NCBI GenBank assembly: GCA_965261395.1
Contig: OZ253462.1
Coordinates: forward strand, 3,488,001-3,552,000
Source of the DNA: Candidatus Latescibacterota bacterium
GTDB taxonomy: Bacteria > Latescibacterota > UBA2968 > UBA8231
Length of the DNA: 64,000 nt
Reading direction: 5' to 3'
Part shown: piece after piece, positions 14,093 through 32,565 of the stretch
Layout of the letters: every line of letters starts with the position of its first letter
Position numbering within the stretch: the first letter of the stretch is position 1
Notes under the pieces: generated by a model
What the model was told of the DNA's origin: nothing
Seen by the model: the letters and a program-made list of their open reading frames with translations, nothing else
Database searches by the model: none
Program-made: the position numbers and the translations under genes

Positions 14093-14254
14093 CTATGGTG
14101 GATCACCGAAGTCGGGTATGGGGAGGAGAGCACCCCCCTGTAGCGCGGACTCGTGGGCGACGAGGCCGGGGAGCATGTAGCGCGCCGCGTCCCAAGCGTT
14201 GTTGGGCGGAAGTTGGCCGCTGGCACAGGCTGTGACGAAGTCGTGGACGAGAAA
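14093..14254 (-). repeat. Diverged duplicate of the 3' end of the Gfo gene (copy of 18843-19001) with its own TAG stop
   Basis: 17 differences in 159 bp by manual alignment, 16 synonymous; 52/53 aa identical. Confidence 0.95.
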
Positions 14255-14270
14255 AATGAGCTGTGCTAAT

Positions 14271-14311
14271 GCGCTGTCATCGTCCTCCGCTCTTCGCTTC
14301 GGCATTCGCGC
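14271..14311 (-). pseudogene. Remnant of a doc 3' end (homologous to 9813-9854)
   Basis: ANAEAKSGGR* vs ANTEAKSGRR*, plus shared GCGCTG just past the stop. Confidence 0.7.
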
Positions 14312-14335
14312 TTCCTCCGGATAAATACCTTGCGC

Positions 14336-17300
14336 TCAATTGCCGCGATACTCGAGTACGACCCGATTGACAGGGCCTTGGAGGCCCATGGTATTGATCG
14401 CTTTTGCCCGCAGGGTGTTGCTGCCCGGGCGCAGTTTCCACGCGAAAGACGGGTCGCTTTCCTGCCATGCGCCCTCGTCCAAGCTGACCTCAAAGCGGGC
14501 GAAATTGGGAATGGGGCCGGACAATTGCACGGACAGGGCCGCGGTCGTCTCGGTGTCCTCTAGGTCGATCCTCGTTTTGTTCAAGGACCAGTAGAAATCC
14601 TCCGGCCGGGTGGTCTGGAGCGAATATTCCGGGTACCTCGGGTCGAGACTGTCGGTCCACCACAGATGGCCGTCCCAGTGGTACTGATCCATGCCCTGTT
14701 CCAGTTCCTGGGGCTCGGAGCGGTACAGGTGGTCGTTGCGCAGCGGTATGCCGAAGCGCAGGTACAGATCGACAAACATCCGTCGCATCTGGTCTATGGG
14801 AATGGGCGGTGGGGGAATAATATCGATATCCCCGGCATTGTTGGCTGCGGCGCTGCGATGCATTTCGAGCGCATTGATGGGCACCCCGGCCCTTTCGTAC
14901 TGGAAAGCCACTTGGTGCCCTGGCAAGAGCCCCGGATCTTGGAGAATCCACTTGCCGTACTGGTCCGACCAGATCTCGGCTAGGCAGTGGTGGTCGACGA
15001 TGAGGGCACGAGCGTGGTACCCCAGGGCCGCGGCGCACTGGGCAAAGACAGCCGCATAGTGGGTGCACATCCCCAGCGCCAAGTTCTGCGGAGCCAGTTC
15101 GAGGATCTCCAGCGCGTCCCACTGTGGGCAGTAGTTGTACTCGTTTTCGTTCCACCCTTCCCACTGCCGGCGCACCCACTGGCGCAAAAGGGCAAACTTC
15201 TCCATCTCCGTTTTGCCGGGGGCGACTATTTCCTCTAGCCGGTATTTTTCCCGTAAGTGGCGCATGCGGGGGTGGTGTGGATCGGCGTAGTCGAAATCGT
15301 ACGAAGAGACCGCAATGGCATGGTCCGGTGCCTCGATCACCTCGATGTCCGGGTGATTTACCCCACGGACCCGGCCGGAAGCCTCAATGGTCACTTTTTT
15401 CACCAGCGGCGTGATGCGGGCATCCCGGCTGGAAAGGGTCGCTCGCCACTGCACAAAGCGCTGTCCGGGCAAGGTGCTGGCCGAGTCGGCTGCCCGCCAG
15501 GGACTCCATTTATCCGACGCGTACCAGGCCGTCGAGCCAGTGCGCACTTGGAACCGGATAGCAGTCTGCGGCTGTAGTGCCAGATCGGCGGACAGACGCA
15601 GGGCGCTCACTTCCACCTTGGGGGAAAGGGCATATTCTGCGGCCACGTCAATTATCGGGGAAGTCAGGGTCCCCTCGGGCGGATAGCCGTGGACCCGGAT
15701 GCGGACGACGTACTCGCCCGAAAGATTGTTCTCGGGCCCGAGTATGTCGCTCTTCCACTCGCTGCTCTCCCCGGAAAGGCGCTTGAAACTGTTTTTGCCG
15801 GGCCTATCTGCATCGATGAGTAGAAAACCCGCTCCCGAAAAGATCAGTTCGTTGCTGCCCTGCTGCAGGTAGTGGCCGGGAATGGTCTCCCGGTCCCAGC
15901 CGCCCGTGAGCATTTTTCCCCTGTTCTGAACATGGCGGATCTCGTGCCCGTTGACCGCGATGAGCATGGGTGTTTGCTCGCTACCACCCCCGCCGAAAAA
16001 GAGGACTTCGGCTTTTTCGACTGCCGATGGCAGCTCGAAGACCTTTTTCACTTGGATTTGGTCCGTCAGGGGTTCGCTGATTTTCGAACTGCGGGCCATG
16101 GCATCGGCAATCAGATAGGTGGGCGCTAGGCCAAGGGCGCCAGAGGCGGCGGAAAAATCGCTGAAACGGTCGCGGGTGCAGTTGGTGAGAGCTTGGCCTG
16201 CAAGGGTACTTTCCCACTTGGACGAGGTTGCGCTGGCAGCGGTGTAGTGCGCCGGCGGCTCGCCGGAGGACATCGGCCGGTCTTGCGGGTAGTACAACAG
16301 CAGGTAACCGCGCCGCTCGCGTTCGCCGCATATGAGGGTGCCGTCGGCCGTGCTGACGACAGCACCGATGTCGCCGAAGGTCCGGTTCCCTCCTTCCGGC
16401 TGCATGCCGCCCGGCCAGGTGCCTAGGTACATCCGGCGTTGGACCGGGTCAAAGGCAAACAAGCGCGGCAGCCCTTCCTCTTCGCCGCCCACGCCGTAAA
16501 TCAGGCCATCGGCCCCCCGGGCCAGCCCCCGGATTCGGTGCTGTCGCAGGGGCTTGCCAAAACCCTCTACCAATGCGGCCTTTGGGTCAAAGCGGAACAA
16601 ATGGCCATCTGTCGTGCCGGCGAGAAAGCTGCCGTCGTCCAGTTTTACCGCGGCGTCGATGGCGGCGAATCGCCGTCGCCCCACTACGGCTGGCAGTCTG
16701 GCATCGAGGGGCTTGAGGACACCTGTGCGGGGATCCAATTCGAGGATGCGACCCATGTCGTCGTCAGCTCCGGTGCTGCCGCTGAGGTAGATCTTGCCGT
16801 TGTCTGCGGCCAGTAGGACTTTGCTGATTGGGCGGGTATGGTGGTGTTGGGGCAGGGGAACTACCTCGCCGTAGTCCTTTTGCTGGCCCGACGACAGCGC
16901 CACGGTGAAAAGCCGCCCTCCGGGCGCGGTAAGGCCGCAGAGCACTTGCCCAGTGGCGTCGACGGCTAGGGCCCCTACTCCGTCCGGCTCGGGAAATTCG
17001 GGCAAGGCGATCTCTGCGAGCAAGCGGCCAGCGGGCGAGTAGTGCCGGAGGGGCATGCTTGGGGCTGCTCGATCCATCAGGTGAGGTGGCGGCACTGAGT
17101 CGCGGCGTCTGAACGTGCCGGGGGTGTGGGGGCGCTGTCGCAGGCGTTCGAAGAAGAATTGCTTGTCGTACGCTCGGCGGGCTCCCAGATAAATGTCTCC
17201 TTCGGGTCCGAGCGCTAGGCGCGGCTCGTCCCACCACAGGGCCTTGAAGCAGTCGAGCATTTTCACTGTTGTGCTGCTGGGGTCAAAGCTGAACAGGCAG

Positions 17301-17509
17301 ATTTCCTTTTTGCCGCAGGTGGCCCCAATGATCAGGCCGTCGCGCTGCCGGCGGACCATTGCAGTTACCATGCACTCGTTGACGGGCAGGGCCTCGAACA
17401 GAGGCACCATCCGGGCGCTTTCCCGCTCCAGATTCAGCGCGGGTTCAGCGCCGGCGAGCAGCGGGGCAAAAGCGAAAATGGCGCAGCTTGTGAAAATTAT
17501 CCGATACAT
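14336..17509 (-). CDS. Large secreted protein: beta-propeller + beta-sandwich + transglutaminase-like (Cys-His-Asp) domain
   Basis: Signal peptide; DG.IYG-type propeller blades; GMCTHYA...HCLAEIWSDQYGKWILQDP. Confidence 0.72.
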   Translation of the reverse strand: MYRIIFTSCAIFAFAPLLAGAEPALNLERESARMVPLFEALPVNECMVTAMVRRQRDGLIIGATCGKKEICLFSFDPSSTTVKMLDCFKALWWDEPRLALGPEGDIYLGARRAYDKQFFFERLRQRPHTPGTFRRRDSVPPPHLMDRAAPSMPLRHYSPAGRLLAEIALPEFPEPDGVGALAVDATGQVLCGLTAPGGRLFTVALSSGQQKDYGEVVPLPQHHHTRPISKVLLAADNGKIYLSGSTGADDDMGRILELDPRTGVLKPLDARLPAVVGRRRFAAIDAAVKLDDGSFLAGTTDGHLFRFDPKAALVEGFGKPLRQHRIRGLARGADGLIYGVGGEEEGLPRLFAFDPVQRRMYLGTWPGGMQPEGGNRTFGDIGAVVSTADGTLICGERERRGYLLLYYPQDRPMSSGEPPAHYTAASATSSKWESTLAGQALTNCTRDRFSDFSAASGALGLAPTYLIADAMARSSKISEPLTDQIQVKKVFELPSAVEKAEVLFFGGGGSEQTPMLIAVNGHEIRHVQNRGKMLTGGWDRETIPGHYLQQGSNELIFSGAGFLLIDADRPGKNSFKRLSGESSEWKSDILGPENNLSGEYVVRIRVHGYPPEGTLTSPIIDVAAEYALSPKVEVSALRLSADLALQPQTAIRFQVRTGSTAWYASDKWSPWRAADSASTLPGQRFVQWRATLSSRDARITPLVKKVTIEASGRVRGVNHPDIEVIEAPDHAIAVSSYDFDYADPHHPRMRHLREKYRLEEIVAPGKTEMEKFALLRQWVRRQWEGWNENEYNYCPQWDALEILELAPQNLALGMCTHYAAVFAQCAAALGYHARALIVDHHCLAEIWSDQYGKWILQDPGLLPGHQVAFQYERAGVPINALEMHRSAAANNAGDIDIIPPPPIPIDQMRRMFVDLYLRFGIPLRNDHLYRSEPQELEQGMDQYHWDGHLWWTDSLDPRYPEYSLQTTRPEDFYWSLNKTRIDLEDTETTAALSVQLSGPIPNFARFEVSLDEGAWQESDPSFAWKLRPGSNTLRAKAINTMGLQGPVNRVVLEYRGN

Positions 17510-17515: not shown

Positions 17516-18826
17516 TCAATCCGCGGTCAGCCGGGGAAATTCGAGGATGTAATACGGATAGGTTGCCATGATGTACAGGGTTCCATCTGGCCCTATTGCC
17601 GAGCCCTGGATCGAGCCCAGGCCGTTGTGCAAATCCCGGTGTGCGGCAAACTCCGCATCGACGACATAGCCGAGGCATTCGCCTTGGCCTCGGTGCGGAT
17701 CGTAGCGCATAATCAGGGTCTGCTTCGGGTTTTGGCCCACATCCGCGGTCCAGTAGATCCGGCCCTTGGCGTCCTGTATCATGGTGTGGATATCGCTGCT
17801 CTCGGCAAAGGGCTCGGGGACTGAATTGCAGACATAGCGCATGGGCACGATTCCGCTGTCGGCACCGGCTAGGTCGAATTCCTGAATTTGCCTGAGGTCG
17901 CCTCCGTAGAGTTTCATGCCGCGGCGGTTGAAATCGGCCCCGAGCTTGCTGCCGCCGCCGCCAATTACACAGGCGTACGGTTTTTCGTAGGGCGGCGCGC
18001 CTGCGGGGACGCGCACTTTGTACTCAACGAGTTCGTCTCTTTCCACGTCGTAGCGGGTCATTCTGCCGCGATTGGGTATCCACACATCGCCCCGGTCGTC
18101 CATGTCGATGTAGCGGCTCCAGGTGCCCACCCGCCCTTTGTCGATCACTTGGTGCGTGTCCAGCTCGTAGATGAGAAAGTGCATGCGCGGTTCGGTTTTG
18201 AAATAGATGCGGCGGCGCTCGTGGTCGACAATGCCGTTCATCAGACCGTCCTGGGCGCGCAGAATACCAAGGTCCTGGGCTAGGCCTGTGCGCGGATCAT
18301 AGGCGATTAAATGACCGCCGGGATAACCGCCAGCCTGTTCGCCGATTTCGGGTCTGGTGGCAAATAGTTCGTGTCCTTGCTTGGTGCCGCCGTATATGCG
18401 GCCGTCGGGGCCGATGGCCAGCTGCGTGTGCGTCTTGCCCTGGGTATTGATGTCGTACAGGTTTTCGGCGATGGTCCGGCTCAGGGCGACTACTCTCTCG
18501 ATGCTGCGGTCTCGGGGGTCATAGGCTAGCCAGTCGCCGTAATCGTAGTAGTTGGCCGTGCCTAGGTAGACCTTGCCGTCGGGTCCTGCCACGCAAGCGG
18601 TGTACCCCGATTTGTTGTTGGCGTATTCATCGGGCACCGGGGTGGCCCAGCAGAACAGCGGCTCGAGGTCGGCCACTTCGGGCTGTTGCAGGGCGGCGGG
18701 CACTGGTCCCGTGGGCTCTGGGGCCGTGCGGCAGAAGGCAGGGCCCGCTAGCAACAGGCTTAGGGCCGTCAGGGCGGTATGCCCCCACGCGGGGAGTACC
18801 CAAAGCCATGCGGCCCGATTTTTCAT
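17516..18826 (-). CDS. Secreted beta-propeller protein
   Basis: ATG 18826, 4 bp after the Gfo stop; N-terminal hydrophobic segment; repeated GPDG(K/R/T)(V/I/L)Y and YDP blades. Confidence 0.72.
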   Translation of the reverse strand: MKNRAAWLWVLPAWGHTALTALSLLLAGPAFCRTAPEPTGPVPAALQQPEVADLEPLFCWATPVPDEYANNKSGYTACVAGPDGKVYLGTANYYDYGDWLAYDPRDRSIERVVALSRTIAENLYDINTQGKTHTQLAIGPDGRIYGGTKQGHELFATRPEIGEQAGGYPGGHLIAYDPRTGLAQDLGILRAQDGLMNGIVDHERRRIYFKTEPRMHFLIYELDTHQVIDKGRVGTWSRYIDMDDRGDVWIPNRGRMTRYDVERDELVEYKVRVPAGAPPYEKPYACVIGGGGSKLGADFNRRGMKLYGGDLRQIQEFDLAGADSGIVPMRYVCNSVPEPFAESSDIHTMIQDAKGRIYWTADVGQNPKQTLIMRYDPHRGQGECLGYVVDAEFAAHRDLHNGLGSIQGSAIGPDGTLYIMATYPYYILEFPRLTAD

Positions 18827-18830
18827 GGAC

Positions 18831-20018
18831 TTATTCTCTGCCGGGCGGATCGCCGAGGTCGGGTATTGGGAGGAGGGCACCTCCCTGGAGGGCGGACTCG
18901 TGGGCGACGAGGCCGGGGAGCATGTAGCGGGCTGCGTCCCAGGCGTTGTTGGGTGGAAGCTGGCCGCTGGCGCAGGCGGTGACGAAGTCGTGGACGAGGA
19001 ACTGATGCGCGCCCGCGTGGCCATTGGGCAGGCCGGCGAACTCGCGCGGCAGGCGCTCGACCGGGTGAACGGCCGATGCGCCGAGGTGGGTGCCGTCGGC
19101 CGCGGTGACTTTATCCATGGGATCGTCGGCTTGGAGCGGCTGGCCGGTGCAGGCTAGGAGCTGATCTAGGTTTTCTTGTTGGGCGTGGTCCTTGGTCAGC
19201 CAACGGGCACCGCTGGCGGATTGCTCGAAGCAGCCTTCGGTACCTTGGAGGATCATCTGCACGCAGCCGGGGTGGCCGATGCGGCGGAATTCGTTGATGC
19301 GGCAGGCGCTGCCGTCGGACATCTTGTACAGGGCGCTCTGGTTGCTGAAGGGGTTTTGCCAGTCGTTGTGCGGGTAGATGCCGTCGGCGTGTTCGTCGCG
19401 GAAGCCTTGGCAGGAGACATGCGTCATATAGGCACCCGTAACGGAGATAATCTGACTCGTCGAATGGGTCGGGTAGTACATCGGCGGAATGCCAGCACTC
19501 GCCCGCCAATTTTCTCCGCCGCGCCAGCGCGCCACATCGTAGAGGCCGTGATCCCAGTCGTGGTAGTACTCGGCTTGGCCATAGACGATCTGGCCAAAAG
19601 CGCCACGGGCGTGCTGCTGGCGGCAGTAGAGCACGCCGGGATAGTAATAGCTGGTCTCGCCCAGCATGTACACCTTGCTACTGCGCGCGGCGGCTGCGAC
19701 CAAGTTTTCTATTTCCGCATAGCTGATGCCGGGGGGCACGGCTGAGTACACGTGTTTGCCGGCCTCTAGGGCTTGGACGGCTTGGGGGCCGTGGAGCCAG
19801 TTTTGGGTGAAGAGGCAAACGGCGTCTATGGACGAGTCGCAGAGCGCGTCGAGCGAGGGGCTTAGGTCGGTTATCGCGTGTTTGGCGGCGTTGCGTGCCA
19901 ACTTCTCGCCGTCCAAATCGCAGAGGACGACTTGGCCGACGAGGGGATGTGCTTTGAAGAGGGGAATAAAGCTCTGGGCGAAAGAGCCCGTGCCGACGAT
20001 GCCGATGCGTAAACTCAT
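18831..20018 (-). CDS. Gfo/Idh/MocA family oxidoreductase
   Basis: RIGIVGTGSFA, ALEAGKHVYSAVP, YMLGETSYY, AEYYHD, PPMYYPTHS. Confidence 0.9.
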   Translation of the reverse strand: MSLRIGIVGTGSFAQSFIPLFKAHPLVGQVVLCDLDGEKLARNAAKHAITDLSPSLDALCDSSIDAVCLFTQNWLHGPQAVQALEAGKHVYSAVPPGISYAEIENLVAAAARSSKVYMLGETSYYYPGVLYCRQQHARGAFGQIVYGQAEYYHDWDHGLYDVARWRGGENWRASAGIPPMYYPTHSTSQIISVTGAYMTHVSCQGFRDEHADGIYPHNDWQNPFSNQSALYKMSDGSACRINEFRRIGHPGCVQMILQGTEGCFEQSASGARWLTKDHAQQENLDQLLACTGQPLQADDPMDKVTAADGTHLGASAVHPVERLPREFAGLPNGHAGAHQFLVHDFVTACASGQLPPNNAWDAARYMLPGLVAHESALQGGALLPIPDLGDPPGRE

Positions 20019-20025
20019 GGGAGGC

Positions 20026-20054
20026 AAGGTATGGCGGGTGGATAGGTGGCGCAA
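20026..20054 (-). promoter_or_regulatory. Sigma70-type promoter, probably leaderless transcript
   Basis: Minus strand TTGCGC-N17-TACCTT-N7-ATG, no SD; spacing conserved in the copy near 9760-9788 (TTGCGC-N17-TACTTT-N7-ATG). Confidence 0.6.
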
Positions 20055-20161
20055 TAGGACGTTTAAGCGGTGGATGCGTTGAAATCTGTTGATTTGGCGT
20101 TGGCAAGGCCGTGCGCTATTTTGCAGCCGACCTATCCACTCTCTTGCCCGGCTAAAATCCC

Positions 20162-20989
20162 ATGTCCAGTCCCATTGCAGCAGGCCGGCCGTACTCGCCG
20201 GAAAAAACCCAGCGCATCATCGAGCAATTCAACCGCGACGGCTACTATCACTTGGGGTCCGTCCTCGCAGCCGACGAGGTCGAGGCCCTGCGCGAGGCCA
20301 TGGCGCGCAAAGTCGCCGATCCTCGCATCCTCAACGACCAAGCCGGCGACCACATCCGCGGCATCAGTCTCATGCGGATGTTTGAATACAGCGAGGCATT
20401 CCGCGACTTGGTCGTCCGCGAGCCATTTGCCAGCTTGGCCGAAGCCATTCTGGGCGACAACTGCCACCTCATGTCGCAAAACGCCCTGTACACCGAACCC
20501 GACTCTAGCAAAGTGCCCGACGGCCCCGGCGGCTGGCACCTCGATGACTTGATCCACTTTCCCCTGCCCGATGCGGTGGAACAGCACGACCCGCGCATCA
20601 CCATGCCCTGCTTTGTGCTGCAAATTTTCACCCCGGTCAGCGATGTAGAAAGCATTGAATACGGCCCCACGCAGGTCGTTCCCGGCAGCCATCGCGCCGG
20701 TCGTCGCCCCGCCTCCCAAGACGCGCCCACCTTTTGCGAGACTGGACCGGTTTCCTTGTTTGCCCGGGCTGGCGACGCTTATATGTTCAACAACCAGATC
20801 TGGCACCGGGGTGCCCCCAATGCCTCGGATCGCACGCGCTTCATGGCCGGAGCCACGTACAGCAAGCGCTTTATCTCCCAGCGTTTCTATCCCTTTATCG
20901 ACTACCGCATGCCGCCACACGTGCTGGAGGGCACCTCGCCCCGCCTGCAGCGCTTGCTCGGCCGCCACGAGAAAGGCTCCTACGGCTGA
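20162..20989 (+). CDS. Phytanoyl-CoA dioxygenase (PhyH) family protein
   Basis: FNRDGY, WHLDD, GPTQVVPGSH, AGDAYMFNNQIWHRG..N.S..TR. Confidence 0.92.
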   Translation: MSSPIAAGRPYSPEKTQRIIEQFNRDGYYHLGSVLAADEVEALREAMARKVADPRILNDQAGDHIRGISLMRMFEYSEAFRDLVVREPFASLAEAILGDNCHLMSQNALYTEPDSSKVPDGPGGWHLDDLIHFPLPDAVEQHDPRITMPCFVLQIFTPVSDVESIEYGPTQVVPGSHRAGRRPASQDAPTFCETGPVSLFARAGDAYMFNNQIWHRGAPNASDRTRFMAGATYSKRFISQRFYPFIDYRMPPHVLEGTSPRLQRLLGRHEKGSYG

Positions 20990-21087
20990 GGTCAGATTCC
21001 GCCCGCTCTCTGGCCACCTACCGCAGCACAACTGGGGAGACGAAGGAAGCCAGTCCATCGCCTACTCACCGGAACAAGGACTTCACC

Positions 21088-22083
21088 ATGAAATTTGGCA
21101 TCATCGGCTGCGGCTCCATAGCCGAGCACTCGTTTGGGCCGAGCCTGCTGGCTTCGGAACGGACCGACCTCGTCGCCGTCTGCCGTCGCGACCTCGAGGC
21201 AGCCAAGGCATTCGCGGCGCGATTCAGTGGCCCGCGCGCGTACGGCTCGGCGGCGGAGCTGGTGCGTGACGACCGGGTGGAGGCTGTCATCGTGTCGACG
21301 CCGGCCGATACCCATTGCGACTACACCTGCCTAGCGGCGGAGCACGGAAAGCACGTACTATGCGAGAAGCCGATGGCGAGAAACGCCGCCGAGTGTCGCG
21401 AAATGATCGCCACGTGCCGGGCTCACGGCGTGACCCTGGCGGTCGCCTACCGTCGGCGCACCTGTCCGCAAGTGGTCGCGGCCAAGCGGTTGATCGCCGC
21501 GGGCCGCATCGGCCGGGTCGTTTTCGCGCGTACCCATTACAGCGGGCGCTGGGATCCGGAAGCGGGGGATTGGCGGATCGAACCGGGCATCGGCGGCGCC
21601 CTGATGGAAATGGCGTCTCATCGCATCGAAGTGCTGTTGAACTTCGGCGGCCGGCCGCAGTCGGTGAGCGCTGTGGTCGACACGGTCGGTCACGACTGGC
21701 CCGTCGATGACACCAACGCCCTGATCGTGCGCTTCGAGGGTGGCGGGATCGGCATGCACTCGACGATCCTGACCTCGCCACCGCGTCGCGACTTTGCCCA
21801 GATCGACGGCGATGGCGGCAGGATACTGATTGACCCGCTGGAGTTGACAGCGGATCACCTGATTCTGGAGCTGCCCGATGGAACTGAGAGGATTGAGGTG
21901 GAGCCGCTGCAGGAGAAGCTATTCGATCTGCCGATGATCGAGGATTTCGCCGCCGCCGCAGAGCGCGGTGAAAAACCGGTCTGTGACGCGGAGAGCGGCT
22001 ACTGGGTGCAGGCGGTCGCCGACGCCGCCCGCGCCTCATCGAGTTCCGGTGTCGCGGTCGCCGTCGAACCGCTGGGCTCTTGA
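21088..22083 (+). CDS. Gfo/Idh/MocA family oxidoreductase
   Basis: MKFGIIGCGSIA, GKHVLCEKPMA, GGALMEMASH; AAGGA RBS. Confidence 0.92.
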   Translation: MKFGIIGCGSIAEHSFGPSLLASERTDLVAVCRRDLEAAKAFAARFSGPRAYGSAAELVRDDRVEAVIVSTPADTHCDYTCLAAEHGKHVLCEKPMARNAAECREMIATCRAHGVTLAVAYRRRTCPQVVAAKRLIAAGRIGRVVFARTHYSGRWDPEAGDWRIEPGIGGALMEMASHRIEVLLNFGGRPQSVSAVVDTVGHDWPVDDTNALIVRFEGGGIGMHSTILTSPPRRDFAQIDGDGGRILIDPLELTADHLILELPDGTERIEVEPLQEKLFDLPMIEDFAAAAERGEKPVCDAESGYWVQAVADAARASSSSGVAVAVEPLGS

Positions 22084-22145
22084 GGGTGCCTCGCCCCGTT
22101 TGCAGCGCTTGCTCGGCCGCCACGAGAAAGGTGCCTACGGCTGAG
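22082..22145 (+). repeat. Diverged duplicate of the PhyH gene 3' end (copy of 20927-20990)
   Basis: 6 differences in 64 bp (4 synonymous); includes the TGA stop; overlaps the stop codon of the inserted Gfo gene. Confidence 0.95.
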
Positions 22146-22151
22146 TGCGGG

Positions 22152-24495: not shown

Positions 24496-25463
24496 TATCC
24501 TCGCGGCAACTCCACCGTGTATTTCCAAATACGGGCTATGCCTCTGCTCGTGTTTTGGCTGTATCGTTCCTCAAATGGAAAAATGATGCTTGTTGCTGTA
24601 TTTCGGCGCTCTGTTACGTAATATAGAGCAAACCCAAGAACGTGTGCTTTCGTGGACAGTGGGCACAGATATAGATTAGTAATCCCTCTGCGAACGTTCC
24701 AATCATTGACCATACGACGCACTTCGCTAGCAGCAACGAAAGGGTCGTTTGCCGGTGCAAAAAAGGTACGAACCTCATCGTCAACTGTACCACCTAGAGA
24801 CTCTTCGGCCCTTCGTACACGAAGAACGTTCTCCTGATACATATCTGCACGCAACGACGGAAATCCAATCAATTGAAATTTCGTAGCCTTTGCTTTACTC
24901 TCCGCTACATGTGAGATCAGATTGTCTTCGTAGCCAGCACCAATTATTAATACATCTTTCCCGATATCATTTGTGTGGATTCCTTCGTAGCCTAAGACCT
25001 GTCGAACTTCCTTGACGACATCGCTAGAGAATTCGGTAAGTTCTCGCTTCTGGTATTGTATCGGTTCCGAATAAATGGCGTCGAATCTGGTGACACCCTT
25101 CTCTAACAGCCAAATCACAAGATATATAAGGTACGGTCGAATAAATCCTGAGATGTCGATACATATGCGTAAGTTCTGTGAGTCAGTCGGCAGAGTGTTC
25201 CAGAAATGAGCAATAAAAGTTGCTTCGTCGTCCGCAGCCTCATCGTACACTTTACCGCAAGGATATTCCGCAGTGGTGTAGCCGTACTCGGGAAAGATTA
25301 ACCAGTATTTATGCGTCGCGTTGACTTTATTGAATACGCATTTTGTTCGTTCGGCTGGTACGTAGGCTGAAATAAAGAGATCCCAGTTTTCCTGTGAACT
25401 CCACTCTCCAGAAACCGATAACTGACGTTTGTAAAAAATCGTGTAATCAGGATAGTTAGTCAT
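24495..25463 (-). CDS. Conserved-looking hypothetical protein, alpha/beta (Rossmann-like) segments
   Basis: 322-aa ORF overlapping both neighbours; IDISGF.RP, IYSEP..Y, LIIGAGYE, LCPLSTK. Confidence 0.8.
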   Translation of the reverse strand: MTNYPDYTIFYKRQLSVSGEWSSQENWDLFISAYVPAERTKCVFNKVNATHKYWLIFPEYGYTTAEYPCGKVYDEAADDEATFIAHFWNTLPTDSQNLRICIDISGFIRPYLIYLVIWLLEKGVTRFDAIYSEPIQYQKRELTEFSSDVVKEVRQVLGYEGIHTNDIGKDVLIIGAGYEDNLISHVAESKAKATKFQLIGFPSLRADMYQENVLRVRRAEESLGGTVDDEVRTFFAPANDPFVAASEVRRMVNDWNVRRGITNLYLCPLSTKAHVLGFALYYVTERRNTATSIIFPFEERYSQNTSRGIARIWKYTVELPRG

Positions 25464-27528
25464 CTTCCACTCCGAACAGCGTTCCCTGATTCTTACTCAC
25501 ATCATACTTTGTTTCTGGTCTTGTCCCAAAGAACGGTGCAGTCATTCTATCAATACGGGTTTTGAGTATCTGATCGAATTCGCTCGTGAAGGCTGGATCG
25601 AAGATGGCATTGAGTTCATCACCTGAAATGGCGAGCGTACCCCTGCGTATGAACGAAATGTCCCACCTTGGTGCAAGTATCCTGTTCATTTGGAATTTCA
25701 TATCTACACGCTCAGAGTTTCGGTCACGCTGTCCACCTACATTGACAAGCAACGACCATTTCTCGGCTAGGTCAATCAAACGCTGGGTATCGGCACTAAC
25801 AGATGCTTGTTCATAGCTGAAAGTAGATAAAGAGCATTCTGATGGTTTGTGCGAGTAGCGAATGCTGCGGAACAATGTACCTAATCGGTTGATTGCCTCC
25901 TGCACCAAATTTCCGTCCTTACCCTCCTTTATACGTGCATCACGAAAGAACCATTCTGCGGTTTCCCTAGCCCCCTCAGCTTGAGCTAAAACAGAAATTG
26001 GCTTTTCACCAAATGGATGTTCATCCTTAAACGCAGCCCACGCCATGACATGTTTAAGAAGGATCAGCAAGTGCCTTGGGTTTCCCCATGATAGCTCTAT
26101 GAAGGTATCGAAGCCAGCATATTGCTGTTTTCGGCGGCATTCACGTCGAAGTTGTGCGAGAAGATCATACTTCCAGTGAAGCAGCTTGCCATGATACTTC
26201 GTTCCTGTGTTTTCCTCTCTCAGATAAGTCTGGCAGTCAATGTGAATATTTTCGGCAGACTTTAAGAGATTACGGCGTGAACTCCATTGTTGATACAAGA
26301 TGAAACAATTAAGTTTTTCTAACAAAGGAAACTTCGGACATGACAGAAGGTCAACAACAGAGTCGATGTCACAGGAAGAAGTGATCCCTAGGGTTACCTT
26401 GGCCTTTAGTCCTTGCCGCATCACGTTCCGAAGTTTTTTGAAGTAGGGCCGTTCTCTATCGGAATATTTCTCAATTATAAACCGAGTTGAGCCCCCAGCA
26501 AGGCCATCCGTTGGATCCCTTTCAAAGGCTCTGGTCAGAAATTCGTGTGCTTCCTCATCGGTCTCCGGTGGATTGGCAAGGATGCCACGGGTATCTAAGC
26601 GACGAATAACAAGACGCCTAGCAAACGTAGCGTATTTTTCGTCATTTTCTCGTAAAGTTTTGTCGAGTATAAGTTGCTCGTACTCGGAGCCTTCTTTGTT
26701 GTTTTCATCTGCACAGAATGTTGAATAGGTCCTTATGCCGTAGAGCCGTGCACCAATCTTAAATGAGCACGGGTTCTGTTTTTCCCGGATCAACGTATTT
26801 ATAAGCTTCTGTTGGGACTCAGTCAGATTTTCAAATTCATCAACAAGGTAGACAAATAAAATGTTCTTCAGTTGTGAAAAGCGAGTCGATAGAACCTTTG
26901 GAATCCCGAAGATCAGTCTTCCGGGACTTACCCGAATTGTAATATCCAATACACCGGTAATGGCACAATTATTGACTTCAACATCGAGTTCTTTCTGCAA
27001 ATCTCGAAGATGCTGGCTAAAGTCATGAAGAGAACTCGGAAACTCACTAGCCGGCTCGTCAAACAGGTTCTCTAATTCAGCAATGATCGATGCTTCGCTA
27101 CCGTTGATATCGGCAGAGTTGCTAATAATCTCGCAGCATATATCAATAGTCATCTGTGAGAGCCAGAGTTCCATGTAGTAAGCAAAGACGTCCGCCCATG
27201 TATCTTCAGATTGTCTTTTTCCACGAAATCGAGTTGAGTTCAGGCCACTACAGCGCATATAGATTCCAATAAATCCTGCATCTCGAACACAGGCAGTCAG
27301 ATCCTCGGAATGACGCATCTTCTGCAGCGGAAACGAAAGATAGCGCATGATGTGCGTTTTCCCGCTTCCTTTACCGCCAAGAATAAGCATAGGCATTTCC
27401 AGGCGAGGTTGGATCAAATCCAGAAAGCCATCACCATAGGATAGGTCTACCCAATACTGCAATATCTGCTCATCTGTGAAATCGGCAGCTCTTGTCACGC
27501 TAAATGGGTTGTCAAGAAAATTATCCAT
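25456..27528 (-). CDS. P-loop NTPase (ORC/CDC6-like/STAND-like)
   Basis: N-terminal NPF...RA, Walker A GGKGSGKT, Walker B YLVDEFENL, GNPR sensor-like motif. Confidence 0.85.
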   Translation of the reverse strand: MDNFLDNPFSVTRAADFTDEQILQYWVDLSYGDGFLDLIQPRLEMPMLILGGKGSGKTHIMRYLSFPLQKMRHSEDLTACVRDAGFIGIYMRCSGLNSTRFRGKRQSEDTWADVFAYYMELWLSQMTIDICCEIISNSADINGSEASIIAELENLFDEPASEFPSSLHDFSQHLRDLQKELDVEVNNCAITGVLDITIRVSPGRLIFGIPKVLSTRFSQLKNILFVYLVDEFENLTESQQKLINTLIREKQNPCSFKIGARLYGIRTYSTFCADENNKEGSEYEQLILDKTLRENDEKYATFARRLVIRRLDTRGILANPPETDEEAHEFLTRAFERDPTDGLAGGSTRFIIEKYSDRERPYFKKLRNVMRQGLKAKVTLGITSSCDIDSVVDLLSCPKFPLLEKLNCFILYQQWSSRRNLLKSAENIHIDCQTYLREENTGTKYHGKLLHWKYDLLAQLRRECRRKQQYAGFDTFIELSWGNPRHLLILLKHVMAWAAFKDEHPFGEKPISVLAQAEGARETAEWFFRDARIKEGKDGNLVQEAINRLGTLFRSIRYSHKPSECSLSTFSYEQASVSADTQRLIDLAEKWSLLVNVGGQRDRNSERVDMKFQMNRILAPRWDISFIRRGTLAISGDELNAIFDPAFTSEFDQILKTRIDRMTAPFFGTRPETKYDVSKNQGTLFGVEDD

Positions 27529-27531
27529 ATA

Positions 27532-28512
27532 TCATTCCTTATATAGTTTTGGGTACCGCTTGAAGATAGGTGTCCACGGATTCCCATCAGATCCCTCACT
27601 CCAGATAATTGGCAGTGTGTTGTCTGGTGTATTATGTTGAAACCCAAGCAACAATTGGCAGTTGCCGTAACCAATCGGTGCATTCGGCTCAAGAGTATGA
27701 CCATATCTAAGGCACATCTGTTCAGCAAACTGCGCGTTGATATTGTTTGGCCAAGGCGAAGGAAAGTAGCGCGAGGAAGAAGAAAAACAACGAAAACTAT
27801 CATCGAGTTCGAATACACATCGAACTACGTCGAATTTCGTGTTATTACGGATGACATCCATACCTGTTGAAGTCGCACACAATACAAAGTACGAGATCTT
27901 GATATCTGGATTACACCTCTTGATTTCTTCGACAATGTCGGCTGAATAAACCTCGGCTTGATGTCCAGAGCCACAAAAATCATCTATAAAAACATAACGA
28001 TCAACATTTGGATTGCGAAACTTTAGCGTACTTACACAATGGTCGCTCCGATTAAAGATCATGGATTTGTTTTCGAATATATCGTTACTATGGATGAAGT
28101 GACTTTCGGGTAAGCTGTTTTCCTGTCGAAAATAGTATAGCAAATGAGGTCCACTTTCAGATGGACTTCCAACTCCAAGAAAAAGAGTTCTATTAAGAGT
28201 CTCTCGAAATTTTTGATTAATGAATTCAAGGTCAGTCGTGTGTCCGTTTTCCTCTCGAATCTGCTCAACAAGTGGGTATTTATAAAGATCGCGGAAAAGC
28301 ACTCGCATGAGTTCACGCATTTGGCGACTGCCGAAGTACATAAACTGCGATAGTAAATAGAGGGCGTGCAATTTGCACTCGTCTTCCGTCCCATTCGCCG
28401 GAGTGCTAAAATTGGCCAGCCAGTCTTCGATTTGTGGCTGCCTAGCTTCACGATCCCATATCGTCTCACTGAAAATCTTGATCTTGGTAAATAACTTATC
28501 TGAAAGAGACAT
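27532..28512 (-). CDS. Phosphoribosyltransferase-like protein (PRTase-CE-like)
   Basis: PRPP-binding loop YVFIDDFCGSGHQ; SESGPHLLYYFRQ; C-terminal PIGYG..QLL..F.HNTPDNTLPIIW. Confidence 0.8.
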   Translation of the reverse strand: MSLSDKLFTKIKIFSETIWDREARQPQIEDWLANFSTPANGTEDECKLHALYLLSQFMYFGSRQMRELMRVLFRDLYKYPLVEQIREENGHTTDLEFINQKFRETLNRTLFLGVGSPSESGPHLLYYFRQENSLPESHFIHSNDIFENKSMIFNRSDHCVSTLKFRNPNVDRYVFIDDFCGSGHQAEVYSADIVEEIKRCNPDIKISYFVLCATSTGMDVIRNNTKFDVVRCVFELDDSFRCFSSSSRYFPSPWPNNINAQFAEQMCLRYGHTLEPNAPIGYGNCQLLLGFQHNTPDNTLPIIWSEGSDGNPWTPIFKRYPKLYKE

Positions 28513-28526
28513 ACACTATTGCCCTT

Positions 28527-29897
28527 TTAATCTTTCACAAAAACGAGTACCCATTCTCGAGTAATCATGCCTGCAGTTTCGTTGCGCTTAGTCATGAGGC
28601 CGCGTGAGCGGATGTTGTCAATCATTCGCAAGACAGTTCGAAAACCTGTTTCCTCTGCTATCATTCGCAAGTAGTGTTGTGTTTTAAACTCACGTCCACA
28701 GATTTGATTGTTCGCCACAACCAGCACAAAATACCCACCAACCTTCAAGCTTCGCCACACTTCTTCGATTGATTCACGCATTTCGCGGAGATACGTCGAG
28801 GCAATCGTGGCACGAATCGGGTTCTCACTGTGAATGTCCATGAGGAATCTATCAGCAGCGCGAAGGCCTGTTTGGGAAAACGTAGCGTAATCAGATTTCC
28901 GAACTTCTTCTCGCCCAATCGTTTCAATCTTGTATTTGCGTAGCTCGTTTGATCTGCAGAGTCCGAGCCATCCCAAGCTAAGGCAAGATGACCGAATATA
29001 CTTTTGGGCACCCGGATAGGGAGGGGATGTAATAACGAGCTGCACTTGGCCAGTGGGGGGCTTTCCATTTGACGGAGATGTAGTGTCGCTGTATCCAAAG
29101 CTTCGTGCGTCGGATGACACTATTTTTGCAGTCGGTAGTTCGTCCGTAAATGGCTCGATAGATGCGATCCGTCTTCGATTCGAGTTTAGGATTTCTTTGA
29201 AAATGGTAATGACGTTTATACGTCGAAGACGGCGTATGTGAGCATCCGTCTTCTCGCGAAGGTTGTGGCCTTCTGGATACTGTCCTGGCCGCAATTTCAC
29301 CGGCACGGAGAGACGCGGATCGGAGAGACTGACTCTCTTGACGCAGCTAGAGAAACACACTCGGAAGAAATCGCGTATCTTCTCTTGGCTCGTCGCTTCA
29401 ATTGCCTCGTACAGACATTGAAGCTGACGAATAACGTGAGGGTAAAACCAGTATGCCAAGTTAACTACATCTGGAGTGCCGTTTTGGGATTCTTTAGGAA
29501 TGCGGTCCAGAAGATGGTCAGTAGCTGAATCCAAGGTCAGCACTGGGACTGGTGAGGTCTTGACGGTGGTGAGCAGTTGAGCAAGTGGGTTAGAGTCGGC
29601 ACCTATTGCGCGTCGCCTAGCTAGTTGTGCCTCCAGCAGTACGGTACCAGAACCGCAAAAAGGGTCAGCAACGACGTCCCCTTGTCGAGAGAGAATCGAA
29701 TTGGCCAAGAAGAAAAACGGGATGTGCATTAGCAATTTCGCCGGATAGGGGTGGAGCAAATGCGTTGCACGCTCGGCGGTTGGAAGGCAAGACACGAGAC
29801 GACGAAAGTCGACCGGCACTGCGCGCCCTGTCCTCTCATAGCGCTCTAGCAAGCGTTCTAATGCAGCGTCTGTGGGATATGTGTCGTAGTTGAACAT
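28527..29897 (-). CDS. Amino DNA methyltransferase (probably N4-cytosine, alpha-type motif order)
   Basis: HPYPAK, motif I DPFCGSGT near the N-terminus, motif IV ITSPPY in the C-terminal half, LKVGG.FVLVVAN. Confidence 0.9.
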   Translation of the reverse strand: MFNYDTYPTDAALERLLERYERTGRAVPVDFRRLVSCLPTAERATHLLHPYPAKLLMHIPFFFLANSILSRQGDVVADPFCGSGTVLLEAQLARRRAIGADSNPLAQLLTTVKTSPVPVLTLDSATDHLLDRIPKESQNGTPDVVNLAYWFYPHVIRQLQCLYEAIEATSQEKIRDFFRVCFSSCVKRVSLSDPRLSVPVKLRPGQYPEGHNLREKTDAHIRRLRRINVITIFKEILNSNRRRIASIEPFTDELPTAKIVSSDARSFGYSDTTSPSNGKPPTGQVQLVITSPPYPGAQKYIRSSCLSLGWLGLCRSNELRKYKIETIGREEVRKSDYATFSQTGLRAADRFLMDIHSENPIRATIASTYLREMRESIEEVWRSLKVGGYFVLVVANNQICGREFKTQHYLRMIAEETGFRTVLRMIDNIRSRGLMTKRNETAGMITREWVLVFVKD

Positions 29898-30153
29898 GAA
29901 CGACGGTGCTAGTGTCCTGTCTCAGAGATAATTTGGATCCATAGTCTGCAGCGGCAATTTGATACGGTTCTTTCACTAAAGTAAAGAAATTGGTCCGTCG
30001 AATTAAGTGGTTTGCAGACCGCTATGACGAAAAAGGCTCGCACTTACGATATTGAGCACTCGGCAGGCTCGCAGCCTTGAGCAGCATCTTGAGGGCATGA
30101 TCCAATATTCTGGATGAGCAACACTATATAGAATCTTCACGTAATGGTCAACA

Positions 30154-30246
30154 TCAAGCGCCACCAGCGTCGGTGAGCAGGTCGATAACAGCCGCGAGCC
30201 GATCCTTGTCTTTCACCTTGGAGCGCAATGCGGTTGCCAGCGGCGT
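30154..30246 (-). repeat. Diverged duplicate of the ankyrin gene 3' end (copy of 31552-31644)
   Basis: 9 differences in 93 bp (7 synonymous); includes the TGA stop; begins 4 bp after the Fic stop. Confidence 0.95.
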
Positions 30247-30250
30247 CGGC

Positions 30251-31411
30251 TTATGGTAATTCGGTACCCTCGCCGAGAATGGCAAGATATTGATCATAGC
30301 CGAAAAGCCGGTTCCGCTTCTTGCCCGTCAATTCGCGCGCTACTCCGACCCGTTCGAGTATCTGCATCCCGGTGGTAACCGCGGGGACCGAGAGTTCAGT
30401 GCGCTTGGCAAGTTCTTGGATCGATGCAATCGGGTGCTCCTGCAAAGCTTGGTGGACGCGCAGCGCCGACCCCGCCGCACGACCTGTCTGTTGTATCTTT
30501 GCTTGGTCTTCCTGAAACAGAGCGAGCAGCCGCTGTGCGGTCGAGACGGCCCCCTCCGCGGTCTGCGTCACGCCGTCGAGAAAGAACGCGAGCCACGCTT
30601 CCCAGTCACCGTCTTTCCGCACAGTATTGAGGAGTTCGTAATAGCTCTCTCGGTGTTGTTTGAAGTAGAGGCTCAAATACAGCAGCGGCTCGCGCAGCAC
30701 TCCGTCGTGACACAGCAGGAACGTGATCAGCAGGCGGCCGACCCGTCCGTTACCGTCGAGGAAGGGATGGATGGTCTCGAATTGGACATGGGCGAGTCCT
30801 GCCCGCAGGAGGGCGGGCAATCCGCAAGCCTCGGTATGGAGAAATCGCTCCAGATCCGACATGCACTCTGCAACAGCGTGTGCCGGCGCGGGCACGAAGC
30901 GCGCCGTTCCGGGCCGGCTGCCGCCAATCCAGTTTTGTGAGCGCCGGAATTCACCTGGGGTTTTGTCGCTGCCGCGACCTCGTGCGAGCAACTCGGCATG
31001 GATCTCGCGGATGAGGCGATTGCAGAGCGGGAATCCCTCGCGTATCCGGCGCAATCCATGTTCTAGTGCCGCCACATAATTCGAGACCTCGACAACATCG
31101 TCGAGGGGGGTACCTGGCATCTCCTCTAGTTCGAACAACAGAAGATCCGACAGTGAGGACTGGGTACCCTCGATCTGGGAGGACAGCACAGCCTCTTTGC
31201 GGACATAGGTGTAAAGGAACAGGTGAGCGTCGGGCAGCAACACGGAGAGACTGTCCAACCGGCCCAGCGCCAGCAATGCCTTCTCTAGGGGACCCTGCAG
31301 AGCTATCAGATCCAGTGCAGGCACGGGCGGAAGCGGCGCAGGTACGAAAGCTCGCACCGTCTCATCGCCAACGATTGTGGTCTCGTATTGGCCGGTTTCG
31401 CCGCGTCTCAC
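30251..31411 (-). CDS. Fic family protein (Fic_N + Fido + C-terminal HTH)
   Basis: EAVLSSQIEGT, PGEFRRSQNWIG, HVQFETIHPFLDGNGRVGR. Confidence 0.93.
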   Translation of the reverse strand: MRRGETGQYETTIVGDETVRAFVPAPLPPVPALDLIALQGPLEKALLALGRLDSLSVLLPDAHLFLYTYVRKEAVLSSQIEGTQSSLSDLLLFELEEMPGTPLDDVVEVSNYVAALEHGLRRIREGFPLCNRLIREIHAELLARGRGSDKTPGEFRRSQNWIGGSRPGTARFVPAPAHAVAECMSDLERFLHTEACGLPALLRAGLAHVQFETIHPFLDGNGRVGRLLITFLLCHDGVLREPLLYLSLYFKQHRESYYELLNTVRKDGDWEAWLAFFLDGVTQTAEGAVSTAQRLLALFQEDQAKIQQTGRAAGSALRVHQALQEHPIASIQELAKRTELSVPAVTTGMQILERVGVARELTGKKRNRLFGYDQYLAILGEGTELP

Positions 31412-31422
31412 GGAGAGGTTTC

Positions 31423-31484
31423 CTTATTAAGCACAACGTAATAAGCCGTATTGTTATTAATATTTAACGCTAAAGTATTAATAA
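31423..31484. promoter_or_regulatory. Two TTATTA/TAATAA inverted repeats upstream of fic (putative operators)
   Basis: CTTATTA-N9-TAATAAG (31423-31445) and TTATTAATA-N13-TATTAATAA (31454-31484). Confidence 0.55.
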
Positions 31485-31551
31485 GAACTATCGAATGCAA
31501 GGAATGAGCGTCAGCAATGGTGCAGGCTATCCATGTTCCCTTAGCTGAAGC

Positions 31552-32565
31552 TCAAACGCCACCAGCGTCGGTGAGCAGGCCGATGACAGCCGCGAGCCGA
31601 TCCTTGTCTTTCACCTTTGAACGCAACGCAGTCGCCAACGGCGTTGCGCCCTTGTCGTCTTTGGCGTTCACATCGGCCCCTCGGTCGAGCAGCAAGGCGA
31701 CGATTTGGTCAAATCCCGCTTTGGCGGCGCAGTGCAAGGCCGTTTGGCCCTTGTGGTTCCTGACATTGACGTCGGCCCCGCAGTCGAGCAACTCGCGCAC
31801 GCGCTGGACATTGCCGCCGCGGTCGCCGCGCGACTGGAAGACAAGGGGCGGCCAGCCGCCCTCGGCGTGGTCCACATCCACTGCGACGCCGTGAGCGGTC
31901 AACAATTCGATGATCTCAGTATTGACGATGCCGGAACGAGGGGCCTCGGCGTGGGTTGGATCGGCCCCGGCGTCGAGCAGGGCCTTGAGGATATCGGCGC
32001 GATCCCGCCACACGGCAAAGCGAATCAGCCAGCCACTGTATGGCCGCGGATCGGCACCCCGCGCCAATAGCATCGTGACGATGGCGAGGTGCCCGGCGCT
32101 GACGGCGTAGTGCAAAACCGTCGTGCGCCGACAGGAATCGTGCTGCGCCTTTTCGGCCGTTGCCAGACCCAGTTCTCGGTCGAGGTAGTCGGCGACCGCA
32201 TCGCTTTCGCCGAGAAAGGCAGCGGTGTAGATATCGGTCGTGGCACCGCGTGTTAGCAGCCGGTCGGCGACTGCGTGATGGCGCTTGTAACGGGCGGCGC
32301 AGTAGGGGGAGATTTCGACTAGCAGAGGCGTGAAGTGACAGCCGCAGGCGTGGATGTCAGCGCCTTGATCGAGCAGGTAATCGACCATGGCGAGCCGTCC
32401 CCGGTACGCAGCTTCCCACAGCATGGTGCGACCGTGCGAACCGACGCGGCTGATCCACGCTGGTTTTTGCGCCAATACGGCCTGAACGGTTTGGAGGTCG
32501 CCGCGCCCGGCGGCAGCGACCGCGACCTTGAGAAAATCACTGGCTTTTCCCGGCAGAATCGACAT
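31552..32565 (-). CDS. Ankyrin-repeat protein
   Basis: GRT.LWEAA..G, GADVN.RN.KGQTALHCAAKAG, GATPL repeats. Confidence 0.92.
   Translation of the reverse strand: MSILPGKASDFLKVAVAAAGRGDLQTVQAVLAQKPAWISRVGSHGRTMLWEAAYRGRLAMVDYLLDQGADIHACGCHFTPLLVEISPYCAARYKRHHAVADRLLTRGATTDIYTAAFLGESDAVADYLDRELGLATAEKAQHDSCRRTTVLHYAVSAGHLAIVTMLLARGADPRPYSGWLIRFAVWRDRADILKALLDAGADPTHAEAPRSGIVNTEIIELLTAHGVAVDVDHAEGGWPPLVFQSRGDRGGNVQRVRELLDCGADVNVRNHKGQTALHCAAKAGFDQIVALLLDRGADVNAKDDKGATPLATALRSKVKDKDRLAAVIGLLTDAGGV

Follow-up and report, generated by a model that had tools for sequence, protein, structure and literature searches.

The window described here is a stretch of 64,000 nucleotides (nt) from the chromosome of a Candidatus Latescibacterota bacterium (assembly GCA_965261395.1, contig OZ253462.1, positions 3,488,001 to 3,552,000 of the forward strand), and in it three genes share one layout, in which an intact gene is followed by cargo of one or two genes and then by a second, diverged copy of the intact gene's own 3' end, referred to below as an orphan. 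The intact genes, which we call anchors, encode a Gfo/Idh/MocA oxidoreductase (Gfo), a PhyH dioxygenase and an ankyrin-repeat protein. The features concerned are as follows, with positions counted from the first letter of the window.

18831–20018, minus strand: intact Gfo/Idh/MocA oxidoreductase gene (Pfam PF01408), whose 3' end (18844–19001) is the intact repeat copy
17516–18880, minus strand: Gfo cargo, gene for a protein of 454 amino acids (aa)
14336–17509, minus strand: Gfo cargo, gene for a transglutaminase-like protein of 1057 aa
14255–14335, minus strand: spacer S, from the cargo stop codon to the Gfo orphan
14083–14254, minus strand: orphan Gfo 3' end (repeat 14097–14254; small open reading frame (ORF) 14093–14305)
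20162–20989, plus strand: intact PhyH dioxygenase gene, whose 3' end (20924–20990) is the intact repeat copy
21088–22083, plus strand: PhyH cargo, a second Gfo/Idh/MocA gene
22079–22160, plus strand: orphan PhyH 3' end (22079–22145) with its own downstream flank
31552–32565, minus strand: intact ankyrin-repeat gene, whose 3' end (31552–31644) is the intact repeat copy
30251–31411, minus strand: ankyrin cargo, a Fic-domain defence gene of the SoFic type (PADLOC E 1e-117)
30154–30246, minus strand: orphan ankyrin 3' end

Comparison of the window with itself returned the Gfo pair (14097–14254 with 18844–19001, 158 nt), the PhyH pair (20924–20990 with 22079–22145, 67 nt) and the ankyrin pair (30154–30246 with 31552–31644, 93 nt), each at 90% identity, and no inverted repeats between positions 12000 and 34000. 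Homology ends abruptly at both edges of all three pairs, every orphan retains the reading frame and the stop codon, and synonymous codon differences outnumber non-synonymous ones (13 to 1 for Gfo, 4 to 2 for PhyH and 7 to 2 for ankyrin). The ankyrin orphan starts 4 nt past the Fic stop codon, the PhyH orphan overlaps the stop codon of the second Gfo-family gene and the Gfo orphan is separated from the cargo stop codon by the approximately 77–81 nt of spacer S. None of the 46 window proteins matched a recombinase, transposase or reverse transcriptase family. On all of these points our results agree with a first-pass annotation of the window, which had described three pairs approximately 90% alike, with frame and stop codon kept and mostly synonymous differences, two of them with the orphan starting close to the cargo stop codon, and had noted the lack of a recombinase, transposase or reverse transcriptase.

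The chromosome is closed in one contig of 6,549,484 bp, and its comparison with itself allowed a census of such pairs. Among 1143 local direct matches of 40–400 nt, with spacings of 300–15000 nt, 108 are isolated two-copy pairs, compared with two inverted pairs passing the identical filter. Isolated pairs separated by over 100 kb number 220 in 6.5 Mb, from which approximately one local pair would be expected by chance, and the genome-wide enrichment anticipated by the first-pass annotation is therefore real. The pairs were classified with a simple custom codon-usage gene caller, which miscalls islands of low guanine plus cytosine (GC) content; by this assignment one copy is the 3' end of a long gene and the other an orphan downstream of it in 37 of the 108 pairs (one of which is also counted in a 5'-end class). 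A 3'-end orphan lies upstream in two pairs, a 5'-end orphan lies upstream in six (the mirror-image layout) and downstream in four, both copies fall within long paralogues in 16, and 43 fit none of these classes. The repeats of the 37 pairs, each present as two copies genome-wide, are 45–376 nt long (median 93) with identities of 84–100% (median 92%), most being 45–150 nt and approximately 90% identical. They enclose cargos of 571–14482 nt with one to eight genes, 89 of the 116 genes having the same orientation as the anchor and 27 the opposite one; cargo GC is under the genome mean in 31 of the 37 pairs, and the orphan starts within 12 nt of the last cargo gene's stop codon in nine. Longer partial and full-length duplicates were also found flanking cargo.

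The origin of the two copies was assessed from the differences between them. In the 34 pairs with ungapped alignments (three with gaps were left out), 74, 49 and 185 differences fall on codon positions 1, 2 and 3 respectively, i.e. approximately 60% at the third position (chi-square p=7e-23). For five pairs, 38 differing sites were compared site by site with the orthologues of five to eight relatives: both bases are present in the relatives at 30 sites, only the orphan's base at three and only the intact copy's base at five, so that the orphan's base occurs in working genes of relatives at 33 of the 38 sites. The chance that a random private substitution matches a relative is 8% (156/1917), or 16% for transitions only (104/639). 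It follows that the orphans are pieces of working alleles and have decayed very little, and the two copies are, as judged from these base states, different functional alleles rather than a fresh duplication that decayed later, as the first-pass annotation had also held. In pair 2189570 both copies carry bases private to this genome and are 99.2% identical over 129 nt. A relative, G002, has the same junction, but its own two copies are only approximately 90% alike, and cargo and junction are shared between the two genomes at approximately 90%; this pair is compatible with duplication or conversion.

The relatives used in these comparisons are metagenome-assembled genomes (MAGs) of congeneric Candidatus Latescibacterota species with approximately 90–94% DNA identity, which is the same distance as that between the repeat copies. 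Empty sites were sought for three of the 37 cargos (Fic, 509057 and 2189570) and exist for each of them. G010 has no Fic gene, and the conserved spacer J directly adjoins its ankyrin stop codon. The anchor of pair 509057/513017 directly abuts the flank in six of 25 genus genomes, with other DNA at the site in four and this cargo in none, and the anchor of pair 2189570/2191883 abuts the flank in 12 of the 25. It is the orphan, not the intact copy, that has the tail and downstream flank of the empty-site genomes, and the intact copy ends in a private tail; the orphan is thus the copy that matches the empty allele. No simple empty site turned up among the relatives compared for either the Gfo or the PhyH pair. 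The PhyH orphan is common to this genome and to G034, its closest relative. The flank of this orphan is unlike the one behind the intact gene, and in G004 it is again found next to a PhyH remnant, there of 17 nt.

The surroundings of the Gfo and ankyrin pairs have a more involved history, for which four further features are needed.

10509–14082, minus strand: private block encoding a WD40 protein (10615–12924) and a metallo-beta-lactamase-fold protein (12899–14044), GC 52–55%
9689–9806, minus strand: remnant of the Gfo start and its upstream region, 78–89% identical to 19940–20081
23252–23329: conserved spacer J
23330–30153, minus strand: low-GC (44–47%) strain-private island, between the ankyrin orphan stop codon and spacer J

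The segment 9689–9806, being similar to the start of the Gfo gene and the region upstream of it, forms an additional fourth pair in the window, which the first-pass annotation had not listed, and in most relatives this remnant lies beside a conserved Nramp-like gene. Identity alone was unable to decide which Gfo copy is native, both being 88–94% identical to relatives, and the question was settled by tails, flanks and site states. The orphan's tail and approximately 10 nt of downstream flank match the cargo-less G006, G004 and G018, and the final 13 nt of the intact gene form a private tail found otherwise only in cargo-bearing relatives. G034 and G010 have Gfo with this private tail and both cargo genes, joined directly to the Gfo-start remnant at 9795 with the orphan absent; in G009 and G011 the two-gene cargo is present and Gfo absent. 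The block 10509–14331, at whose edge the Gfo orphan lies, was found in this genome alone among the loci compared, and breakpoints recur at 14332–14334 with three different neighbours in different species. Two histories are possible. In one, the block and the old Gfo gene were resident and a new Gfo plus cargo was imported over the block; in the other, the block arrived second and brought with it a donor's truncated Gfo end. The first is mildly favoured because part of spacer S (14271–14311) resembles 9813–9854 (86%), which lies beside the Gfo-start remnant. At the ankyrin locus, the low-GC island sits exactly between the orphan's stop codon and spacer J, with 37 nt of J lost, and was inserted later than the orphan. 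The idea of the first-pass annotation that cargo arrives with a related strain's allele and leaves the old end downstream holds in so far as orphans lie in their native context, and needs correction in that the DNA now between the repeats in the window is not always what came with the orphan, as the arrangements in G034 and G010 and at the ankyrin locus show.

One junction could be read as a microhomology joint. At the joint between the second Gfo-family gene and the PhyH orphan there is a 7-nt microhomology, GAGGGTG, exactly at the junction; in relatives the native end of this second Gfo-family gene leads into the next gene, and here it is joined to the PhyH fragment. As this is the sole junction with donor-like context, it is the sole one at which microhomology is readable. 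In addition, two of the orphans are present in relatives in shorter forms. The ankyrin orphan, 93 nt here, is a 20-nt stop-proximal remnant in G005 and G009, having been shortened by loss between two short repeats, and is absent from G006, and the PhyH orphan of approximately 64–67 nt here corresponds to 17 nt in G004. At the locus of pair 2189570, G005 has the gene, an Mrr gene and an internally deleted second copy whose deletion joint has an overlap of 10 nt, and in G012 and G013 the sole surviving copy is the downstream one, with Mrr upstream of it. These states indicate that a complete second copy can arise at first and that the stubs are what remains of it after deletion.

Sequence related to the window is also present in runs labelled sponge metagenome, four of which were compared, all as contigs, a form in which rare excised or circular molecules are invisible. 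Contigs of runs X15 and X16 cross the junction of the second Gfo-family gene with the PhyH orphan (20962–22130 and 21074–22130 respectively), and a divergent X1 contig with 14 differences spans the same junction (21260–22123); window parts with no X2 or X1 contigs carry no information. The X15 and X16 contigs also cross the whole of spacer J, the island and the ankyrin orphan without difference (23163–30212), as well as the junction of the metallo-beta-lactamase-fold gene with the Gfo orphan (13500–14174). The summed depth of strain-private parts is approximately one-third to one-half that of conserved parts, which indicates that congeners 90–99% alike co-occur in the samples. Donors are therefore at hand.

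The proteins of the 34 pairs outside the window were scanned for their families (134 proteins, i.e. 34 anchors and 100 cargo proteins, with ORFs below 180 nt left out and three cargo genes common to two overlapping pairs scanned once). No cargo protein matched an integrase or resolvase family, and six of the 100 matched transposase families of insertion sequences, some of them as fragments. Many cargo genes are defence or toxin–antitoxin genes: the toxin–antitoxin cargo comprises PIN-MazE, PIN-FitA, HicAB and Phd; restriction–modification and nuclease cargo comprises a type I set (HsdRMS), XamI with an Eco57I-type methylase, Mrr with a caspase, GmrSD and RmuC; and other defence-linked cargo comprises AbiEii-type ATPases, PglZ with a helicase, Schlafen/AlbA_2 and HamA. 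Restriction and modification genes occur together in some cargos only, and most hold other genes, including those for metabolic and surface proteins. The anchors are ordinary proteins such as PhyH, Gfo/Idh/MocA, ankyrin, aconitase, acetate kinase, aminotransferases and similar. In the whole genome, PF00589 matched four proteins (XerD, an XerC-like protein and two weak Xer-like proteins), the best integron-integrase scores were 128.5 and 102.8 bits (XerD and the XerC-like protein) against a cut-off of 265, and neither the resolvase family of serine recombinases nor Ku had any match, so that Ku-type end joining was ruled out. One ComEC homologue is present.

Taken together, we think it probable, though well short of certain, that the orphan tails are scars of homology-anchored illegitimate recombination with DNA of co-resident related species, eroded later by deletion. 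This reading of ordinary host recombination is based on the allelic nature of the copies, the empty sites, the native context of the orphans, the one microhomology joint, the erosion series, the lack of known site-specific recombinases described above and the genome-wide excess of direct pairs. A conserved gene would serve as the homologous anchor, and the incoming DNA would carry accessory genes next to the donor's allele of that gene. The other incoming end, having no homologous partner, would be joined by an illegitimate, microhomology-type joint, either as in homology-facilitated illegitimate recombination (HFIR) or through one-ended break repair copied from a foreign template. If the joint fell inside the resident gene, or if the incoming piece started inside the donor's gene, the product would be a complete gene, cargo and a partial gene, or sometimes a full second copy, and small deletions would then trim the redundant copy to a stop-proximal stub beside the native flank. 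No dedicated recombinase would be necessary, and ordinary homologous recombination could probably remove or transmit repeat-flanked modules once they had formed. The direction of each transfer, a requirement for RecA and the way in which the DNA entered are inferences. Of the interpretation offered by the first-pass annotation, the allelic copies, empty sites, enrichment and homology-anchored route are retained, the last with one illegitimate joint that fits the PhyH junction; the dedicated cassette machine is not, since no more than nine of the 37 junctions fall within 12 nt of a cargo stop codon, a common junction motif is lacking and the recombinases of the genome are of the Xer type. Of the competence genes that it had suggested looking for, the ComEC homologue is present.

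Several observations weigh against this account of host recombination. Only the PhyH junction is readable as a microhomology joint. The presence of ComEC is no proof of competence. The switch of ancestry expected within the anchor upstream of the repeat was examined in one gene and is only suggestive: inside the anchor of pair 509057, identity to G034 is 97–99% and then 93–95%, with large noise, and placing the crossover by this sliding identity was likewise no more than suggestive. The preference for 3' ends over 5' ends (37 pairs compared with six in the mirror-image class) is left unexplained by the model, and the nine of 37 orphans starting within 12 nt of a cargo stop codon are more precise than expected of random joints unless selection or deletion trims them. 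In addition, pair 2189570 needs gene conversion, or re-creation of the repeats by homologous recombination, and is not a simple scar.

This last point keeps alive the idea that modules travel by recombination alone, and the alternative that follows from it is one we regard as unlikely, namely that the unit of repeat, cargo and repeat is itself the vehicle, a self-propagating cassette with no recombinase. Recombination between its own repeats would release such a cassette, either in circular form or as linear DNA ending in homologous sequence. Entry into a naive genome would follow through RecA-dependent Campbell-type integration, or through the bridging of sister chromosomes at a single-copy gene end, and would re-create the repeats each time. 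The private bases shared by the two copies of pair 2189570, in a cargo and junction held in common with G002, whose copies differ by approximately 10%, speak for this; exact empty sites are expected from repeat-by-repeat excision, and a similar life cycle is proposed for restriction–modification units in the excerpted parts of Furuta et al. 2010 (PMC2853133). The first-pass annotation had suggested looking for circular junctions. In contigs of two runs, X15 and X16, a joint leads from position 18866 back to 14312 across three additional letters, at approximately 0.3 of the strain's depth, giving a head-to-tail arrangement of the two-gene cargo unit with the last 36 nt of Gfo. It may represent cargo that is tandem or sequentially displaced in a second strain, or it may be a circle. 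However, it lies outside the repeats, where excision through the repeats would have placed it, its depth matches that of a second strain seen as cargo variants, and the cargo shows no increase in depth. No joint linking the two repeats of any of the window's three cargos was among those listed for the four runs, although contigs are blind to rare forms. Furthermore, repeats of 45–150 nt at approximately 90% identity are a poor RecA substrate, and the first cassette would still require an illegitimate joint. A wider form of the same idea, which we also hold to be doubtful, is that gene ends act as portable address labels, so that a module welded to a gene tail is a recombinase-free cassette moved between co-resident species by homologous recombination. 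If true, this would be a main route of defence-gene circulation in dense symbiont communities that have no classic mobile elements, and the head-to-tail joint would be a snapshot of such traffic.

A true long target-site duplication, in which staggered cuts are filled in and the two copies, identical at birth, diverge afterwards, is assumed in the published name of the phenomenon discussed below and would account for the near or fully identical pairs (100% over 50 nt at 5990176, and 99.2% over 129 nt at 2189570). We consider it quite improbable, as the orphan's base is found in relatives' working genes at 33 of 38 sites compared with the 8–16% expected of private mutations, third codon positions hold 60% of the differences, the private tails of the intact copies are absent from empty-site genomes, and for four of the five pairs tested the copies are indicated to group with different relatives.

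Decayed site-specific elements, or an integron-like cassette integrase acting in trans on gene ends, the latter being close to the dedicated mechanism proposed by the first-pass annotation, would fit the nine orphans that start within 12 nt of a cargo stop codon, the co-orientation of 89 of the 116 cargo genes with their anchors and the recurrent breakpoints at 14332–14334 with three different neighbours. Against this, 37 different genes are targeted, and no k-mer rose above background across 74 junction flanks of 60 nt (37 pairs), so that a shared attachment-site-like motif was rejected. The cargo holds no integrase or resolvase, and one junction is a microhomology joint. A site-specific recombinase acting in trans was also rejected, since the genome holds only tyrosine recombinases of the Xer type, none reaching the integron-integrase cut-off, and no serine recombinase. 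We judge this explanation to be quite improbable. Assembly artefact in a mixed-strain chromosome, to which the MAG origin of the genome and its relatives and the presence of congeners 90–99% alike in the same samples might point, is very improbable, since the sequences that meet at the joints are not homologous and thus offer no place for strain switching, independent assemblies share junctions (the PhyH orphan in G034 and that of pair 2189570 in G002) or hold remnants (G004, G005 and G009), and contigs of other runs cross several junctions, as given above.

The feature corresponds to a published one, 'insertion with long target duplication' of restriction–modification units (Furuta, Abe & Kobayashi 2010, PMC2853133), at unusual scale. 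The excerpted parts of that paper credit the first cases to Nobusato et al. 2000, describe a handful of cases per species, consisting of restriction–modification units by design and mostly with near-identical repeats (417/423 and 44/46), and leave the mechanism unknown with a link to competence suggested (PMC2853133). In both settings, as far as those parts go, inserts of less than 20 kb with no mobility genes are flanked by direct repeats of more than 30 nt that correspond to a single copy in a related genome; a gene 3' end often falls within these repeats, and the cargo includes defence genes. The repeats here are unique and longer than 30 nt, are single copy in an insert-free relative for the three cargos compared, and enclose less than 20 kb with no integrase. 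In contrast, there are 37 pairs here in one genome, the cargo is not restriction–modification throughout but ranges from toxin–antitoxin and defence genes to metabolic and surface proteins, and the repeats are mostly approximately 90% identical and are different alleles, so that by the site states of the five pairs tested they are not both derived from the target, pair 2189570 alone being compatible with duplication or conversion. As the copies are different alleles, 'target duplication' is the wrong description of their origin. We do not claim that this is the first genome-wide census of its kind.

The recombination that we favour also has laboratory precedent. HFIR is reportedly owed to de Vries & Wackernagel (2002), Prudhomme et al. 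(2002) and Meier & Wackernagel (2003), all cited in PMC5361080. By the definition in PMC3240628, homology anchors one end of the incoming DNA, and a short microhomology serves to join the other. Here, too, foreign DNA is added beside a conserved gene and a recombinase of its own is absent; unlike that work, which used transformation or conjugation in the laboratory with selected markers, the process here is deduced from natural scars with one readable microhomology. In Rhs and contact-dependent inhibition (CDI) loci, C-terminal displacement with orphan 3' ends was reportedly described by Jackson et al. in 2009. HFIR has been proposed for orphan tails in type VI secretion system (T6SS) and Rhs loci in the excerpted parts of Kirchberger et al. 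2017 (PMC5361080), in connection with the sequential displacement of T6SS effector–immunity modules. As described there, a new 3' part with linked genes is anchored in the conserved 5' part and the old 3' end is left downstream as an orphan, much as here, but those loci encode polymorphic toxins in which the displaced tail is the variable toxic domain and the cargo its immunity gene, whereas the present anchors are ordinary enzymes and an ankyrin protein, with tails barely changed and unrelated cargo. The arrangement also resembles integron cassettes, in that promoter-less, mostly co-oriented genes are stacked downstream of a fixed point with no recombinase of their own, but there is no IntI here, no attC-like shared site by the k-mer test and no common attachment point, with 37 gene ends used instead. 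Finally, integrase-driven islands (tRNA and tmRNA islands, tycheposons) insert at the 3' end of a tRNA or protein gene and bring a replacement end; they carry a tyrosine integrase and a short identical core. The layout of intact gene, island and displaced, diverged 3' end is the same, yet none of the 37 cargos has an integrase.

These data bear on the open question of how defence and other accessory genes enter 'hotspots' that have no mobile-element genes. They provide 37 dated scars of one process in a closed genome, with relatives at approximately 90–94% identity that show donor and recipient alleles, empty sites and stages of decay. Two different alleles can underlie what is known in the literature as a long target duplication, and this points to recombination between species rather than cut-and-fill insertion. 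The data also suggest that defence genes are still freely exchanged among sponge symbionts in which integrases are almost absent, and the pairs offer defined substrates for laboratory work in a transformable model bacterium.

A number of separate observations were made at individual loci. At G000:C1:2184555-2193511 there is a double hotspot, in which an amidohydrolase gene and, convergent with it, the gene of a xylose-isomerase-like TIM barrel both act as anchors, with separate cargo and a separate orphan for each, the two orphans facing one another approximately 1 kb apart. The cargo of pair 509057 is bracketed by a 10–11-nt direct repeat (G000:C1:509282 and 513003; L028:1726-1740 and 5447-5460), which lies directly past the new stop codon and directly before the orphan and may be the trace of an earlier insertion in the donor. 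In one cargo (L052, G000:C1:5345209-5351960) the GmrSD gene is split by a UPF0236-family transposase gene, and this 481-aa transposase recurs in another cargo (L059). Within the window, the spacer between PhyH and the second Gfo-family gene (20990–21088) is empty here, and eight relatives hold 0.6–2.2 kb of differing DNA in it, with slightly different breakpoints, which makes it a further insertion hotspot. A Doc/Fic toxin with a MazE-type antitoxin adjoins the Gfo-start remnant at 9820–10445; this pair is present in G009, G011, G001, G013, G005 and G002 and absent from G034 and G010. The WD40 gene of the private block contains five in-frame tandem units of 123–126 nt, 69–78% alike, at 12002–12582. 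The low-GC island (23330–30153) encodes ThyX, a CARF6-type protein (PADLOC E 1.7e-110), an ORC/CDC6-like ATPase (PF24389), PRTase-CE (PF24390, PADLOC PRTase_III-A) and a type II DNA methyltransferase, and it appears to be a candidate defence system of several genes that includes a thymidylate synthase of its own.

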